Assembly (NCBI GenBank): GCA_046482545.1
Contig: JAWOEX010000028.1
Coordinates: 64,001-128,000 of the forward strand
Reading direction: 5' to 3'
Origin: Candidatus Thorarchaeota archaeon
Lineage (GTDB): Archaea > Asgardarchaeota > Thorarchaeia > Thorarchaeales > Thorarchaeaceae
DNA length: 64,000 bases
Each line of letters begins with the position of its first letter. The stretch's first letter is position 1. This document shows, piece after piece, positions 17,875 to 24,886 of the stretch. The notes beneath the pieces were generated by a model. That model had not been told where the DNA came from. It worked only from the letters and a program-made list of their open reading frames with translations, and made no database searches. A program made the translations under genes and the position numbers.

Positions 17875-18831
17875 ATGCCTCAAGCTATGTACACAGTATG
17901 GTGGCACGATACCCTAGGCCCAATGGTAGGCAGGAGTTATCCTGAATCTACCCGTCTAACTAGCGAAGAAGCGGTTACCATATTCATGAGTCATGGAAAC
18001 GATATGAAGGCAGAAATAGGTTATACCAAGCTTCCAAAGGGTCTGATTATCTCATATATGGAGCGGCCCAATTGCATAGCTGTCCTGCTCGACAAAGATG
18101 ACGAACCTTCAGTCATTGAAAGGAATCTCCAAAGAGTTGTATCAAAGATGGATTTCAACTCTGAGTCTTGGGAAGACGAAATCAAGTATGCCTTCCAACG
18201 TCTTGAGGAGCTGATTCACGAAACGACGGGAAATGAATTGCTGTCGAAACCAGAGGTGCGGCAACTCATCGTTGATATGGGTAGAAGGAGAATAGGACCA
18301 ATAAAACCCAAGCAATCGCTGATGGCAGTTACAGAATATCCAGTTGCAAAGGAGTACTTAGGGGCTGGTCATGAAGAGGTAGTACGAACACTAGAAGATC
18401 TCGAGGAGGAGGGGTTCATAGTAGGAAAAACGTACGGAAGAAGCATCCAGTGTCAGCATTGCGGAAGCACCCAAGTTGAGCTTGTACTGAAATGTCCTGA
18501 TTGTGGTTCAACAAGCTTGCATAAAGTGTACACAGTTTTCTGCCCAAATTGTAGGAGTCGCTTCCATACGGTCGTCGGTGACGAAATCTCAGAAGTGATC
18601 TGCCAAAAATGCAAAGAAGCAATTCCTCTTTCAAAACTACAAGTCTTGGAAGTAGAGCCACTATGTAATGAATGTGGAAAGGTGACTAATGAGCCCAAGA
18701 TTGATTTCAAATGTGTTACATGTGGTAAAGAATTCCAGATAATCGACCTGATGGGTGGCACCACAGTCGCTTACCACCTTTCTGATCGTATCAAAGAACG
18801 AACTAATAACATCAAAAAAGGTAAATCATAA
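17875..18831 (+). CDS. Longin (uDENN/NPR2-like) domain fused to winged helix + multi-Zn-ribbon (TackOD1-like) module
   Basis: N-terminal WHDTLGPMVGRSYPE; LEDLEEEGFI then CQHC, CPDC, CPNC, CQKC, CNEC, CVTC. Confidence 0.65.
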   Translation: MPQAMYTVWWHDTLGPMVGRSYPESTRLTSEEAVTIFMSHGNDMKAEIGYTKLPKGLIISYMERPNCIAVLLDKDDEPSVIERNLQRVVSKMDFNSESWEDEIKYAFQRLEELIHETTGNELLSKPEVRQLIVDMGRRRIGPIKPKQSLMAVTEYPVAKEYLGAGHEEVVRTLEDLEEEGFIVGKTYGRSIQCQHCGSTQVELVLKCPDCGSTSLHKVYTVFCPNCRSRFHTVVGDEISEVICQKCKEAIPLSKLQVLEVEPLCNECGKVTNEPKIDFKCVTCGKEFQIIDLMGGTTVAYHLSDRIKERTNNIKKGKS

Positions 18832-18840
18832 CAAGTTTTT

Positions 18841-19623
18841 ATGAACAGCCATATTATAATAATCATGGCAATCGGAATAATCGGCGGCTCAGGATTTTAT
18901 GAGTGGTTTGAAGGATCTACAGAGAAGAAGGAGACTCCTTTCGGTCTTAGCTCACCAATAACTATGGTTGACAGGAAGGAGGTGCCAGTATATTTTCTCG
19001 CACGGCATGGTCCCGAACATGGTCTTCCTCCGCATCTCGTGAATTATAGAGCCAACATCTATGCATTACGAGAAGTAAGTGTTACTCACATCATTGCAAC
19101 AAATGCCGTGGGAAGCTGCAAACAGGCAATAAAGCCGGGGGATTTCATGGTTCCAAATCAGCTTATAGACCTGACCACTGGAAGGCAGTCCACCTTCTTT
19201 GAAGGTAGCCGACAGAAAGATGTGCCAGAAGAATTCATGAAAGTCAAACATACCGATGTCAGCTTCCCTTACAAGGGAGATGTCCGAGATGTCATAATCG
19301 AAGTTCTCTCTGACGGGGATATTGATTTCCATGATAATGGGACATATGTGACTACAAATGGCCCCCGATTTGAAACAGCCGCTGAGATCCAAATGGCTAA
19401 ACTGTTTGGCGGCGATATTGTGGGCATGACAAGCGCCCCTGAAGCATTTCTCGCCCGTGAGCTTGAGATTGATTATGCTACAGTTTGTTTGATAACTAAC
19501 TATGCAGCCGGCATGCAGGACACAATCTCACATCAGGAAGTCATCAAGCTATTTGATTCGCGCACAGAGGATCTCAAGCGAATCATTAAGAGGTGCTTGA
19601 GCCGCTTAGATGAGAAGATTTAG
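18841..19623 (+). CDS. mtnP: S-methyl-5'-thioadenosine/thioinosine phosphorylase (MTAP family)
   Basis: IGIIGGSG, ARHG-x2-H-x2-PPH-x-VNYRANI, GPRFETAAE, VGMT-x2-PE, ITNYAAG. Confidence 0.92.
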   Translation: MNSHIIIIMAIGIIGGSGFYEWFEGSTEKKETPFGLSSPITMVDRKEVPVYFLARHGPEHGLPPHLVNYRANIYALREVSVTHIIATNAVGSCKQAIKPGDFMVPNQLIDLTTGRQSTFFEGSRQKDVPEEFMKVKHTDVSFPYKGDVRDVIIEVLSDGDIDFHDNGTYVTTNGPRFETAAEIQMAKLFGGDIVGMTSAPEAFLARELEIDYATVCLITNYAAGMQDTISHQEVIKLFDSRTEDLKRIIKRCLSRLDEKI

Positions 19624-21230
19624 CTATTCAGCTTCCCTTCTACTAGTTCTCTTGCGGCCGATATGATTTTCATCGCACCCTTCTCATTAAGGCCTTCAAC
19701 CTTCTGAGCTAACCGGTCAGCTCGTTCACCTGCAAGTTGTGCCGCTGACTCATACCCTTCTCTCTTGAGCCTATGCTCCATCTTCTCTCCCACACCGTGA
19801 ACCCTCCGCAAGGGCAATATCTTGGCTACTTTGCCGCCTAGCATATCTTCTAGGTCAGCATCAGAAACATCCGATGCTGCATCAATTATGTCCAATTGTT
19901 GTCGGATGGATTCAAAGTCTCTATCGTCAAGGTAGTTATCAACAGCCTCCTCAACCCTTTCTTCATCAAATCTGAGTTCCAAATCTTCCATCTCAATTTC
20001 TCTGGAAACTACATCTGGTACCCGCCCCATGAAATACAGCGATATGAACGCTAGGAGAATGGAAGTCTGCTCAGCTATTCTACTCGTAGCTTGGGACGGA
20101 GCAAATTCAATCGCCCCAATTTCAAGAAACCAGAAGAGTATTGCATAACCAAGATAAAGCATCCACACAGCAGCTAATCGTCTGGCTTTGGTTTTTGGAG
20201 AACCCACCTCGCCCCATATCAAGAGAAGTGTGCTTCCCATCAGGAGGCCTTCAACTAACCTCTCAAAAATCAATAATGGCAAGGCAAAGATGTAGAAGCT
20301 TTCTGCTACCCCTACTATATTGTACCCATAGAAGGCAGGACCAAATATTGTGAGTAATCCCATTCCCAATATTCCTGCGCGCAACGCCTCTTTTCGGTCG
20401 AGCAAATCCGCAATGAATCCGCCTATCAAAACTCCGGTTGCCAAAACAATGAAATCCAGACCTTCAATACCCGACAAGAAGACAAGCGAGTGATTATGAG
20501 ATAATGGCTCCATTGCTTGTGCCAATGTAGCTTTCGTAGCCGCGTACCACAGGAAATGAGCCGCCATGACGAATGCGAGCGGAACCAAATAACGGCTGGC
20601 CTTTCCCCGGACTGCAAGAGCCACCTGATCAAAATTCCATGGCCGAAAGCTCACAGAGACGAATAATGAAACCAGACATACTATCTCTGCAATTGGAGTG
20701 GTACTTGAACCGCCAACATAAGGCGACAGACTGAAGAATAGAAAAACACTATAAAAAACAAAAGCCACCGAGATAAGAACACCTGCGATCCGCCCTCTGA
20801 ATCGTGCCACAACAGTCCTGTTTAGGAAAACAGCCCAACTCCCCACCATCAAAACTAGTCCGGAGAATGTCAGAATTACTGTTGCGAACTCAAGTACGGG
20901 GGAGTATTGGTTAGGAAAGCCAAGAATCCACCCCAGAGTTCCTGCAACAAGTGGAGCCAAACCACCAATAAAAATGACTGCATCGAGCCGCTGAACCCTA
21001 TCCAAAATGCTGGCCATTAGCAATAGAGAAAACAACATTGAGAAAAGACCAAGCGTTAGAAACTTCATATTCGCATATGCCGTCCAAGCAGGAGCCACAA
21101 GTAAATAAATTGAACTAAAATGAAGCAGAATATAGGATAATGAGGGAGTAGAGAGAAGGTAGAAAATTGCCTTTTTCCATGGGAATTCTCGATATTCCAG
21201 CAAGTTATTTCCTCGAAATCCGATTTGCAA
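19620..21230 (-). CDS. Polytopic (MFS-like) membrane protein with C-terminal helix-hairpin-helix domain
   Basis: About 12 TM segments incl. GGFIADLLDRK and RFRGRIAG; acidic linker; VHGVGEKMEHRL...KVEGLNEKGAMKII tandem HhH. Confidence 0.7.
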   Translation of the reverse strand: MQIGFRGNNLLEYREFPWKKAIFYLLSTPSLSYILLHFSSIYLLVAPAWTAYANMKFLTLGLFSMLFSLLLMASILDRVQRLDAVIFIGGLAPLVAGTLGWILGFPNQYSPVLEFATVILTFSGLVLMVGSWAVFLNRTVVARFRGRIAGVLISVAFVFYSVFLFFSLSPYVGGSSTTPIAEIVCLVSLFVSVSFRPWNFDQVALAVRGKASRYLVPLAFVMAAHFLWYAATKATLAQAMEPLSHNHSLVFLSGIEGLDFIVLATGVLIGGFIADLLDRKEALRAGILGMGLLTIFGPAFYGYNIVGVAESFYIFALPLLIFERLVEGLLMGSTLLLIWGEVGSPKTKARRLAAVWMLYLGYAILFWFLEIGAIEFAPSQATSRIAEQTSILLAFISLYFMGRVPDVVSREIEMEDLELRFDEERVEEAVDNYLDDRDFESIRQQLDIIDAASDVSDADLEDMLGGKVAKILPLRRVHGVGEKMEHRLKREGYESAAQLAGERADRLAQKVEGLNEKGAMKIISAARELVEGKLNS

Positions 21231-21286: not shown

Positions 21287-22249
21287 ATGCCCGCAGGATA
21301 TAATTTTAATGCGAATCTTAGTCTCGTTTGGTTGGGTATTAGTTTGCAAAGAAGTCTGGGTGCGCAGGAATTCATGGTTATTGCTCCGGGAGGTGCTCCT
21401 GTATTCCATCATTCGAACAGAAATATAAAACGTCTTGATGAGCTACTTTCGGGCTTTCTTTCTGCAATCACTGCCTTCGCTAATGAATTTGGGGAGCGAT
21501 CAGTTCAGAGTCTCTCCTTCGAAGGCTCAGAGCTGCTCTATGAACATGGTAAAAATGGTCTAATATTCGTTCTTCTCATTGATGCTGATGCTTCAGAGAC
21601 GGTTCTCAGAGCAGTCCTCAAGGAGCTGAGTAAGAGATTCCAGAACAGATTCTCATCAGAAATCGGAATGGAAATCCCCATAGCTGACACATATGAGGGG
21701 TTCGATGAAGAAGTCAATGCAGTAGTGCAGAAGTATCGGAACGTTCTGAAGAAAGCCTCTCAACTCAATGGTTTTGTAGTACCACAGTTAAAGACCGAAC
21801 AGGATGAATCCGTTTTACATTCTGACATTCTGGATGAACTCCATCGCGATTATGGTAACTTGGGTGTTCGTGTCTTAGAGTCTATTGACGGAAATACCTG
21901 TATTCACGAAATCAAAGAGCAAACCGGTTTGGAGGAGAGCGACATCTTGGAAATCATAGAGCACCTAATCATCTCAGGAGCCATAGAAATCAAGTTATTA
22001 TGTCCATCTCTTCTAAAGGCCGATTCTCGTTTTGAAACTTATCTTGATCTTATCGGCTTGCCGCAGAAGGATTACCAAATTCTACAACGAGCAAGAATCC
22101 TCTGTGATGGACAGCATCCGCTTACAGAAATTAGTGAAAAAATTGATGTATCACCGGAACGTCTTTTCGACGTATTGTCTAAGATGGGGGACACGGATGT
22201 AGAGTGGTTGAAACAAGACCCAAGAGACGTTCAAAAAACGAACTATTAA
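21287..22249 (+). CDS. Longin-domain + tandem winged-helix protein (NPRL2/3-like architecture); true start probably near 21344
   Basis: N-terminal MVIAPGGAPVFH...LLSGFLSAI-x2-FA longin pattern; VVP...VLESIDG-x3-I-x2-I...IIEHLIISGAI winged helix. Confidence 0.7.
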   Translation: MPAGYNFNANLSLVWLGISLQRSLGAQEFMVIAPGGAPVFHHSNRNIKRLDELLSGFLSAITAFANEFGERSVQSLSFEGSELLYEHGKNGLIFVLLIDADASETVLRAVLKELSKRFQNRFSSEIGMEIPIADTYEGFDEEVNAVVQKYRNVLKKASQLNGFVVPQLKTEQDESVLHSDILDELHRDYGNLGVRVLESIDGNTCIHEIKEQTGLEESDILEIIEHLIISGAIEIKLLCPSLLKADSRFETYLDLIGLPQKDYQILQRARILCDGQHPLTEISEKIDVSPERLFDVLSKMGDTDVEWLKQDPRDVQKTNY

Positions 22250-22343
22250 GAGACTCAGAATGCAACAAGAGAGAAAAGCAATGTGTGGCTGAGTTATAAG
22301 TAAAAAGAAATATACCCATATGAAATCCCATAGGTGAAAGAGT

Positions 22344-23627
22344 GTGCCCCTTGAAATCATAGTTCTTCGAGATAGTGGTATTCCTCTCTTTCACTACGGC
22401 GCAGCTGGCTCAAAAAGACTTAATGAATTAGTAGCCGCCTTCTTATCTTCAGTTGGACATGTGGTTGAAAGATTCAGCAAAGAAGGAATTCGTGAAATAC
22501 GGTTTGAAGAAAGCAAGTTTGTATGGAAAAGAAAAGGAGACCTGTTTTTCATTGCCTTTGTGTCAGCACAAGATAGTAGTCAGGTTTATGATGTAATTCT
22601 GAATCAACTTGCAGATAGATTCGTTAGCAAATTCTATGAGACTCTATTGGAGAAAGAAGATGAGTCTTCCGAGTATGAGGGTTTTGCAGAAACCATAGAA
22701 GGGCTTCTGCGAAGATTTGATGGAGTTCCAGGAATGGCAAGAAGATACAAAACCTATCTTCTGCCGCTTGAGGACATGCACAGGATAAAGACTAGCCTTC
22801 GAAAGATAGAATCAACATCAGGGGTTGAAAGGGGAGCTTATCTTGTTGATGATGGATACATCATCGTCTCGAATCTGCGCACATATGAGCTAGAAGCAAC
22901 GCTAGATATGATATCAAACGGTGAGATTTCCTCTGAGAAATACCAAAGACCTGACTTCGTGGAACATCCCGCTCTCGATCAATCCAATCGCCTGCTCTTC
23001 CATGCAACGTCGAATGGTATCCTTCTGGTACTAGTTGTTGACTCCAAGGAAAGCCCTAGTGTGAGATTGAATTCGTTGAAGCGGTTAGAAAATAGAATTA
23101 TCGGGATTGATCCTGATACAGGAACGAAAATCGAACCACAAACAGAGAGAGAGCCTTTGGAATTTGAGGAGCACAAGATGCTTGTTCCACTGGTATCTGT
23201 CAATACAGAGCAGAAACATGACACGCCTTTGCTTGTTGAAGTACCCGAACACATGAAACACTTGGTTCTTCGAGTACTCCAAATTGCTGATAAAGGTCTG
23301 ACCATTGCTGAGATTCGAGAGGAGGCAGGAATGATGCGGAAAGAGATAGATGAGGTCTTGGCTCAAATAGTGGGCAGAGGCTTGGCCAGACTGTCTGAAG
23401 CTTATCCGTTTCTTACAATGGAAGATTCTCGATTCAAAGCTTATCTGGATATCGTCGGTATTCCTAAAAGGGACCAAAGAGTCCTAAACACAATTTGGCA
23501 TCACTTGGATGGAGACCACTCCATCAGGGATATAGCAGAAAAGACCACAGAATCACCCTCAAAGATTGTGAGTGTTTTACGCGCGCTCGGAAAAGTTGTA
23601 GAATGGCGAACAAGGAGAGCTGCTTGA
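22344..23627 (+). CDS. Longin + roadblock/LC7-like + tandem winged-helix protein, paralogue of the upstream gene
   Basis: IIVLRDSGIPLFHY...LVAAFLSSV; central LRKIESTSGVERGAYLVDDGYIIVSNL roadblock signature; shared DSRF-x2-YLD-x2-G-x-P...DG-x-H...VEW C-terminus. Confidence 0.7.
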   Translation: MPLEIIVLRDSGIPLFHYGAAGSKRLNELVAAFLSSVGHVVERFSKEGIREIRFEESKFVWKRKGDLFFIAFVSAQDSSQVYDVILNQLADRFVSKFYETLLEKEDESSEYEGFAETIEGLLRRFDGVPGMARRYKTYLLPLEDMHRIKTSLRKIESTSGVERGAYLVDDGYIIVSNLRTYELEATLDMISNGEISSEKYQRPDFVEHPALDQSNRLLFHATSNGILLVLVVDSKESPSVRLNSLKRLENRIIGIDPDTGTKIEPQTEREPLEFEEHKMLVPLVSVNTEQKHDTPLLVEVPEHMKHLVLRVLQIADKGLTIAEIREEAGMMRKEIDEVLAQIVGRGLARLSEAYPFLTMEDSRFKAYLDIVGIPKRDQRVLNTIWHHLDGDHSIRDIAEKTTESPSKIVSVLRALGKVVEWRTRRAA

Positions 23628-23628
23628 A

Positions 23629-24390
23629 ATGGCTGGGAAAATAGTTGCAGTTCATAGCTTTCGAGGCGGCACAGGCAAATCAAATATTTCAGCTAACCTT
23701 GCTGCTGTGGCCGCTCTCGGAGGGAAAAGAGTAGCTGTAATGGATACAGACGTTGCTTCCCCTGGAATCCATATTATATTCGGACTGGGGCGACAAAAAA
23801 TCCAGTATACCCTGAACGACTATTTGCGAGGAACATGTGATATTACAGACGCATGCATCGACATGACGGAGAGACTGGGTATAAAAGATGGGCGACTATT
23901 CCTGATACCAAGCTCGATGAGCGCTAGTGATATCACAAGAATACTCAGAGAAGGCTACGAGGTGGGCGACCTTCGAAATGGATTTAGCGAGATCATGAGC
24001 GCAAAGGACCTCGATTACCTCATAATTGACACTCATCCAGGATTGGACAGGGAAACTCTACTATCGATGGCAACAGCTGATGTTCTGTTCGTAGTCGCGA
24101 GAATCGATGAACAGGACTTGCTGGGTACTGCAGCTACTCTATCAGTTGCACGACGTTTAAAAGTACCTAGGATTTGGCTCATTATCAATAAGAAGCCCCG
24201 CATCTACGAAAACGAAGCCATCATCAAAGAGGTCGAAAATAAATTCAGAACCAAAGTTGCATCAATAATACCGATTGTTCCCATCTTGATAGAGGCTGGA
24301 AGCAGATACGTAGTGGCTCTCAAGCATCCTGATAACGTTTTCACGAAGGGGATGAACACCCTTTATCAGCTTCTGGAGAATGAAAAATAG
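23629..24390 (+). CDS. MinD/ParA family ATPase
   Basis: HSFRGGTGKSN deviant Walker A, VMDTD, IIDTHPG, IINK; 1 bp after the upstream stop. Confidence 0.9.
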   Translation: MAGKIVAVHSFRGGTGKSNISANLAAVAALGGKRVAVMDTDVASPGIHIIFGLGRQKIQYTLNDYLRGTCDITDACIDMTERLGIKDGRLFLIPSSMSASDITRILREGYEVGDLRNGFSEIMSAKDLDYLIIDTHPGLDRETLLSMATADVLFVVARIDEQDLLGTAATLSVARRLKVPRIWLIINKKPRIYENEAIIKEVENKFRTKVASIIPIVPILIEAGSRYVVALKHPDNVFTKGMNTLYQLLENEK

Positions 24391-24442: not shown

Positions 24443-24886
24443 ATGATGAATGTCAGCGTACGTATGGCCGATGCGACAGACCGCGAGGAGCTGAAGGACT
24501 TCTATTCCAGAGAAGGGCAGAATTTCGAAGAAATCATGGGCCAAAGGGGTGCTTTTTCTCATTCTGAGACAATGTATATTGTGGCTGAGATGCAGGGCAT
24601 GATAGTCGCGGCACTCAGACTGAGCATAGGAAAGAAACCGGGTGTCGGAAAGGTGGGCATCATCCAGCACTTTGAGGTCGAAGATGAGCTGGAGCAGACA
24701 GAGCTCGGCCCCAGTATGCTGGAAGAAGCTGTACGGATAGCGAAGGAGAAGGGTCTCCGAGCACTTGATGCAACCGTTCGCGACGAGCGATCAGACGTTA
24801 TTCACCTGTACAAACAAGCAGAGTTTGAGGTTGAGCACAAAGAAACCTACCTGAGACGGAAGTTCAGAAAGCGCTTTTTCACTTAG
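24443..24886 (+). CDS. GNAT family N-acetyltransferase
   Basis: VRMA...D; FEV-x7-LG-x2-ML; HLYKQAEF motif B. Confidence 0.75.
   Translation: MMNVSVRMADATDREELKDFYSREGQNFEEIMGQRGAFSHSETMYIVAEMQGMIVAALRLSIGKKPGVGKVGIIQHFEVEDELEQTELGPSMLEEAVRIAKEKGLRALDATVRDERSDVIHLYKQAEFEVEHKETYLRRKFRKRFFT

Follow-up and report, generated by a model that had tools for sequence, protein, structure and literature searches.

Two paralogous genes coding for longin-winged-helix proteins (here A and B) are followed directly by the gene of an ATPase of the MinD/ParA family in the genome of Candidatus Thorarchaeota archaeon (GCA_046482545.1; 3.05 Mb, 99% complete). The genes lie in the 64,000-nt stretch analysed here (the window), which covers positions 64,001-128,000 of contig JAWOEX010000028.1 and whose numbering is used throughout. 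ParA/MinD ATPases dimerise on ATP, and a partner encoded by a neighbouring gene recruits them and switches them off. The reading that we favour, and to which we give an even chance of being right, is that the adjacent ATPase has the longin-winged-helix proteins as its partner and regulator and works with them as a small switch module in Thorarchaeia and Hermodarchaeia. The anatomy of the proteins, the linkage of their genes and the pattern of gene loss are read directly from the genomes; from these we infer binding, contact surface, dimer state and output.

Linkage was surveyed in 251 Asgard genomes, with adjacency counted by hand. Close orthologues of B and of the ATPase share the same families: Thorarchaeaceae, a second Thorarchaeales family (genome G108) and Hermodarchaeia. 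The gene directly upstream of the ATPase in the 51 Thorarchaeaceae that carry it is B in 41 and A in five, while an insertion separates the genes in two, the ATPase is unlinked in one and its position is unplaced in two. B is directly upstream of the ATPase in 18/18 Hermodarchaeia and in G108. The linkage anticipated by the original prediction, which was made from the sequence of the window, is thus conserved, the ATPase abutting B or A in 46/51 Thorarchaeaceae and in all Hermodarchaeia. A gene for an MFS-like membrane protein is a further conserved neighbour in Thorarchaeaceae and Hermodarchaeia; it is not found upstream in G108.

The paralogy of A and B, also proposed in the original prediction, is highly significant (BLASTP E 1e-23 for one half and 1e-18 for the other), and profile-profile comparison gives 99.8% for the longin, 98.3% for the first and 99.7% for the second winged helix. 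The two genes are in tandem in most Thorarchaeaceae. The 18 Hermodarchaeia and G108 have a B-type gene only, also when searched with the A profile, and in five genomes of one Thorarchaeia genus (g12; L072-L076; 77-90% complete) A abuts the ATPase and no B was found. As either paralogue can be lost while the ATPase stays, whatever ties the ATPase to A and B is common to both, and A/B are probably the ATPase's partner because either sister protein alone is kept with it. In a tree built on the longin and the winged helices A is sister to all B-type proteins (87/94) and the clade of A and B is firm (99.5/100), so that the A/B pair may predate the split between Thorarchaeia and Hermodarchaeia. Given that root, the duplication would be old, B would have gained its roadblock domain and either copy would later have been lost while the ATPase stayed.

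Structure models of A and B were built from 79 and 63 homologues, respectively (mean pLDDT 79-80). The model of A and the complex run with A start at Met30, so that about 10 residues of the N-terminus, part of strand 1 among them, are missing. The complex predicted for A with an ATPase dimer, ATP and Mg scored 0.48 (runs 0.43, 0.48 and 0.61), a weakly supportive value, and the best of three controls scored 0.00. The runs had a contact agreement of at least 72% and a partner pLDDT of at least 68. In the benchmark of this score, the mark was reached by 58/80 solved pairs and by 2/110 mismatched pairs, the range up to 0.60 holding only seven of the solved pairs and both mismatches. The predicted complex shifts the odds only slightly.

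In the mechanism that we propose, the ATP-bound ATPase dimer would bind A or B via a part common to both. This part would most likely be the winged helices, standing in for a small partner that was lost (see below). The longin would dimerise the partner, as B-B or A-A where one gene is left, with A-B dimers being optional. Together with the roadblock of B, the longin would couple ATPase cycling to some site or cargo; possible candidates are the MFS-like membrane protein encoded divergently next door and a small GTPase from another locus. The output would probably be positioning or on/off control of a signalling complex, rather than septum placement or Rag-GAP (GTPase-activating protein) chemistry.

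The ATPase has the features of the broad ParA/MinD superfamily (P-loop and switch motifs; Pfam CbiA, AAA_31 and ParA above cut-off). It shares with the ATPases of MinDE, ParAB and FleN-FleQ the SIMIBI fold, a deviant Walker A, switch motifs and a neighbouring candidate partner. It differs from them by an arginine in place of the signature lysine, by the apparent absence of the C-terminal extension and by a candidate partner with eukaryote-type longin and roadblock domains. The Walker A arginine is found in 18/18 aligned proteins of the subfamily, compared to lysine in 1HYQ and 4V03, and the tail past the aligned region has 17 residues in the ATPase versus 44 in 1HYQ. Scores are far below the MinD cut-offs (83 versus 201.75 bits for TIGR01969; 57 versus 212.9 for TIGR01968). 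The original prediction had seen a patterning ATPase of the MinD type here, a view that is not supported for this distinct arginine-variant subfamily found mainly in signalling operons. Sequence identity is 72-91% across Thorarchaeaceae, 51-59% to Hermodarchaeia and the second Thorarchaeales family, and 43-48% to cyanobacterial and Deinococcus proteins. Almost 6000 proteins match the ATPase at E ≤1e-40, and its subfamily is mostly bacterial. Copies on plasmids of Nostoc, Deinococcus and Streptomyces (34-48% identical) often lie amid two-component, SpoIIE/anti-sigma and cyclic-nucleotide-binding genes. The literature search found no published study of this arginine-variant subfamily. In a quick tree, the thorarchaeial and hermodarchaeial ATPases form one clade (SH-aLRT 99) with a long stem (0.72), sister to Helarchaeota-type proteins and within bacterial diversity; its root is unsure because the outgroup is very long. 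In four bacterial loci (L122, L132, L152, L153) a second, degenerate ATPase copy with the Walker A RRGTG or RPGTG lies right behind the first, possibly forming an active/inactive pair with the intact one.

A survey of 80 metagenomic and 6 plasmid loci shows that the neighbour most often seen beside ATPases of the subfamily is a winged-helix protein of about 110 amino acids, present in 25 stand-alone copies and in eight further copies within proteins of about 965 amino acids beside the ATPase. Helarchaeota retain an orthologue of this small partner near the ATPase (40-42 bits); in the Thorarchaeia genome under study nothing scored above 20 bits. Specific homology of the A/B winged helices to the bacterial partner was tested and could not be demonstrated, the scores being generic only (hhalign 94% for the first winged helix of B). 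The 110-amino-acid protein ends in W-x-x-L-D and is paired with the ATPase in L123, L131, L136, L151, L154, L160, L164, L080 and others, while the large proteins with the embedded domain are found in L126, L141, L142, L156 and L186. The Helarchaeota-type locus (L064, L066, L068, L070) codes for a TPR-like protein, a 107-amino-acid helical protein, the ATPase, in some cases a CoA ligase, and the winged-helix partner; in L068 it is close to the MCR alpha gene.

Relatives of A and B were sought by a profile search that covered 1.84 billion proteins. Proteins with a longin and two or three winged helices occur in Helarchaeota, Baldrarchaeia and other Asgard groups. Such relatives (profile E 1e-13 to 1e-16) directly adjoin Ras-family GTPases in L195, L216 and L227, and in L206 one is found two genes from an Arf-like GTPase. 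A GTPase-linked outgroup fits a change of partner in the line of Thorarchaeia and Hermodarchaeia, without proving it. We put forward as possible, with the balance leaning against it, a more specific version of the partner reading: a longin-winged-helix family that accompanies Ras-type GTPases in other Asgard archaea and resembles the ancestor of NPRL2/NPRL3 would have taken over a bacterial-type MinD-like ATPase in this line, replaced its small winged-helix partner, and now directly control the ATP cycle and link it to a membrane transporter-like sensor. The pairs of a Ras-family GTPase and a longin-3-winged-helix protein at L227:654-3165 and L216:1456-3687, those of L227 repeated in tandem and that of L216 following a small longin, are candidate GTPase-regulator pairs. 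On a Helarchaeota contig, the genes of a longin-3-winged-helix protein and of an intact Ras-family GTPase flank one for a Ras-like protein without a normal P-loop, possibly a pseudo-GTPase (L195:6614-7147). Three or four related winged-helix repeats with no longin are found in the Micrarchaeota proteins P0333, P0337, P0339 and P0351 and in L197; one of the Micrarchaeota genes adjoins secretion ATPase and T2SSF genes.

Several findings weigh against the ATPase being the partner of A and B. The whole region is syntenic within Thorarchaeaceae and the genomes are kin, so that the adjacency counts are not independent events, and the ATPase is unlinked in G164, a genome that is 93% complete. Most of the outgroup longin-winged-helix genes examined have no NTPase within 1.5 kb, and the link to GTPases thus rests on three or four loci. 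B ranks 16th among the open reading frames of its genome (12 bits) for likeness to the bacterial partner. The complex score of 0.48 falls in a range deemed more often wrong than right unless the complex is likely beforehand, and the winged-helix contact is a guess, since the prediction gave no interface.

Ras-superfamily GTPases are known to use longin and roadblock domains as platforms. A and B could be GEF-like (guanine nucleotide exchange factor) or scaffold platforms, in the manner of Mon1-Ccz1 or MglB, for a GTPase encoded elsewhere, the ATPase acting in the same pathway or being co-regulated with no contact; we regard this as unlikely. B has a roadblock domain (about residues 137-255), which the original prediction had missed and which structural comparison (VIA) matches to the MK-D1 roadblock 7YH1 (Z 11.4), MglB (10.5) and the Thorarchaeota roadblock 7F8M (9.6; Foldseek E 4e-5). 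Weak Fuz_longin_1 matches are found in 71/79 A proteins. The platform reading is favoured by the top Foldseek matches of B, via longin and roadblock, which are the Rab GEFs Mon1-Ccz1, CPLANE (Fuzzy-Inturned) and BLOC-3 (E 2e-9). The outgroup relatives next to Ras-family GTPases point the same way, as does the finding that MK-D1 GTPases are mostly encoded outside the operons of their roadblock or longin genes, domains that form dimer platforms (PMC10933270). B resembles the tri-longin Rab GEFs (Mon1-Ccz1, Fuzzy-Inturned, HPS1-HPS4) in having a longin followed by a roadblock-type domain, but two winged helices (B residues 276-421) take the place of their third longin-type domain and the locus has no Rab. 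The near co-distribution of the ATPase orthologue and A/B, an adjacency that outlasts the loss of either paralogue and the slight support from the predicted complex argue for the ATPase instead.

The original prediction described a longin heterodimer of A and B with the ATPase as its partner NTPase. In the form weighed here, the heterodimer would be obligate and GATOR1-like, hold the ATPase on its longin face and act as its GAP or GEF. The longin fold is indeed predicted (VIA Z 12.8 to Sec22b, 12.3 to VAMP7 and 12.5 to the CPLANE chain 7q3d_C, with SRX also among the matches). The order of longin and winged helices was likewise recovered, the 13 top Foldseek matches of A all being GATOR1/SEA proteins (E 5e-7 to 9e-4). 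The TM-scores of these full-length alignments are just 0.22-0.32, so that the matches reflect the common domain order; structural atlas matches include NPR2 (TM 0.36) and NPRL3 (TM 0.45). VIA aligns 191 residues of A, from the longin through the first winged helix, to a GATOR1 chain of the size of NPRL2 (Z 9.8, rmsd 10), but the longin alone is nearer by Z to Sec22b and VAMP7 than to the GATOR1 chain. The tandem arrangement in most Thorarchaeaceae and a pair perhaps older than the Thorarchaeia-Hermodarchaeia split would suit a heterodimer; the B-only and A-only lineages that retain the ATPase make an obligate one unlikely.

Further evidence against this heterodimer comes from its supposed chemistry. 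The catalytic arginine finger of NPRL2 is Arg78 on a longin loop (PMC8534245) and GAP longins are marked by a GP motif before longin strand 2 (PMC12290439). No arginine is conserved in the variable b4-b5 loop of A, a position judged from the models without superposition on NPRL2; in B a strand end has R in 42/63 and K in 19/63 proteins, and the residue is absent in G108. Alignment columns show GGxP in A and GI(L/P) in B in place of the GP motif. A GAP mechanism like that of NPRL2, which the original prediction allowed, is therefore not supported. Neither A nor B matched NPRL2/3 or Mon1 when solved structures were searched with single sequences or profiles, Pfam NPR2 (PF06218) matches nothing in the genome and HTH_NPRL3 (PF24064) scores 13.4 bits, below its cut-off of 27.2. 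No DEPDC5 or Rag GTPase is encoded in the locus, to which the search for either was confined. A and B share with NPRL2-NPRL3 (yeast Npr2-Npr3; the GATOR1/SEACIT core) an N-terminal longin followed by tandem winged helices and the presence of two paralogues. They differ in having no Pfam-level match, arginine finger or GP motif, in paralogues that do not require each other, in the added roadblock of B and in a gene link to a MinD-like ATPase rather than a Rag GTPase. A and B are built like NPRL2/NPRL3 but lack their catalytic marks and do not belong to their sequence families, and we judge the obligate heterodimer improbable.

Slightly less probable again is that the winged helices bind DNA, as in a segregation pair of the ParA/ParB or SegAB kind, or in a transcription regulator under ATPase control, like FleN/FleQ, in which longin and roadblock would act as sensor or dimer domains. 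Nearly all A/B members have weak matches to TrmB and HTH_47, the ATPase is kin to ParA and FleN, the conserved MFS-like neighbour ends in a helix-hairpin-helix domain and bacterial members of the ATPase subfamily are found in signalling operons. However, the two winged helices of A have a strongly acidic character, evidence against DNA binding, and those of B are about neutral. The genes sit among metabolic genes, and the winged helices of NPRL2/3 make protein contacts, the C-terminal domains being a large contact surface (PMC8534245). That the neighbourhood is inherited gene order with no functional meaning is very improbable: in spite of the long-range synteny within Thorarchaeaceae and the 28/122 neighbour pairs (23%, mostly complexes or pathways, among them hydrogenase subunits, UvrABC and an ABC transporter) common to one Hermodarchaeia genome and the Thorarchaeia genome under study, nothing but the trio of MFS-like, longin and ATPase genes is kept together in both classes, their spacing is about 1-100 bp, the A-B gap is hit by insertions more often than the B-ATPase gap, and the ATPase ranks with the better conserved proteins (50% versus a median of 37%).

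The features of the locus are listed in Table 1. The three open reading frames of the original prediction were found as described (A at 21287-22249; all on the + strand), as were the protein segments that it quoted and the 1 bp between the stop codon of B and the ATG of the ATPase. The 320-amino-acid frame of A is present, but translation probably starts later, at the TTG, since homologues of A mostly have 290-302 amino acids and start about 10 residues ahead of Met30. There are 203 such homologues, and the named ones are almost all from Thorarchaeota. The spacer between A and B possibly holds a separate promoter for B and the ATPase, to judge from its sequence; a sigma-70 promoter scan, ill suited to archaea, was at chance level.

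Table 1. Features of the A/B-ATPase locus (window coordinates).
Feature	Position	Strand	Description	Basis
Gene A	21344..22249	+	~301 aa from probable TTG start; frame open from 21287 (320 aa); longin, winged helices 1 and 2	structure model, homologues
Longin domain of A	21365..21757	+	GGxP in first loop; b4-b5 loop without conserved arginine	model, VIA, column counts
Tandem winged-helix domains of A (two)	21812..22216	+	both acidic: K+R 4 vs D+E 13; 7 vs 13	
A-B spacer	22294..22337	+	TATA-like TTATAA 22294-22299; GGTGA ribosome-binding site 22333-22337	sequence
Gene B	22344..23627	+	427 aa from a GTG start; longin, roadblock, winged helices 1 and 2	structure model
Roadblock (MglB/LAMTOR-like) domain of B	22752..23108	+	confined to B-type proteins	VIA, Foldseek
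MinD/ParA-family ATPase, HS(F/Y)RGGTGKS subfamily	23629..24390	+	253 aa, ATG start	
Deviant Walker A RGGTGKS of ATPase	23662..23682	+	arginine replaces signature lysine; invariant in subfamily alignment	
MFS-like membrane protein, divergent, C-terminal helix-hairpin-helix domain	19620..21203	-	third conserved neighbour	HHH_5 E 5e-7

The MFS-like protein has an acidic linker and its gene is head to head with the longin gene in Thorarchaeia and Hermodarchaeia; it is possibly a sensor rather than a plain transporter. A GNAT-like gene (24443-24886, - strand) is convergent on the ATPase and kept in Thorarchaeaceae only. It and the aldehyde oxidoreductase gene behind the ATPase, found in Thorarchaeaceae and not in Hermodarchaeia, were rejected as module members. 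The same applies to the gene at 17875-18831 (+ strand; 318 amino acids), a few kb off the operon in Thorarchaeaceae and absent from the Hermodarchaeia loci. Its product appears to have an N-terminal GP motif like GAP-type longins fused to TackOD1 (Pfam E 2e-18), which is consistent with the fusions of longin and signalling domains reported by Liu et al. (bioRxiv 10.1101/2020.10.19.343400). Some relatives (L044, L045, L047/L048) have extra genes inserted between A and B. Insertions inside the operon at L043:7587-8540, L044:9032-12227 and L048:9110-10588 hold, by eye, ADP-ribosylglycohydrolase-like, PAS-like and response-regulator genes. The inserted genes of G016 (apparently an ADP-ribosylglycohydrolase) and of G046 and G069 (two-component genes) look like passengers.

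The original prediction, whose interpretation is partly supported, saw here its best candidate for a new system; the protein family itself is probably not new. Liu et al. described an NPRL2-like Asgard family with a longin and a small C-terminal domain in most Thorarchaeota and a few Lokiarchaeota genomes (bioRxiv 10.1101/2020.10.19.343400), and A and B are probably this family. Their distribution fits that description, with members in 50/59 other Thorarchaeaceae and relatives in Helarchaeota. The link to the ATPase is new with respect to that work, whose text is silent on MinD, an operon or a roadblock insert. Literature searches, including MinD with Asgard or Thorarchaeota, found no paper on a link between A/B and the ATPase. 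A longin and a SIMIBI-class NTPase are known in one machine from the eukaryotic signal recognition particle receptor alpha, where the SRX longin is fused to a SIMIBI GTPase. That case differs in that the partner bound by the longin is the Arf-like SR-beta rather than the SIMIBI domain, and in having no winged helices.

Asgard genomes seldom reveal which NTPase is served by a given longin or roadblock platform (PMC10933270). A candidate for that NTPase, the ParA/MinD ATPase, is indicated here by a core of two genes that both classes retain, and the natural A-only and B-only versions offer pairs of proteins amenable to tests in vitro. A widespread bacterial MinD subfamily, an arginine variant with a winged-helix partner, emerges from the analysis as well. 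If the ATPase does bind A or B, longin and roadblock domains would not be GTPase-specific, and the NPRL2-like architecture would have existed before, and apart from, Rag signalling.

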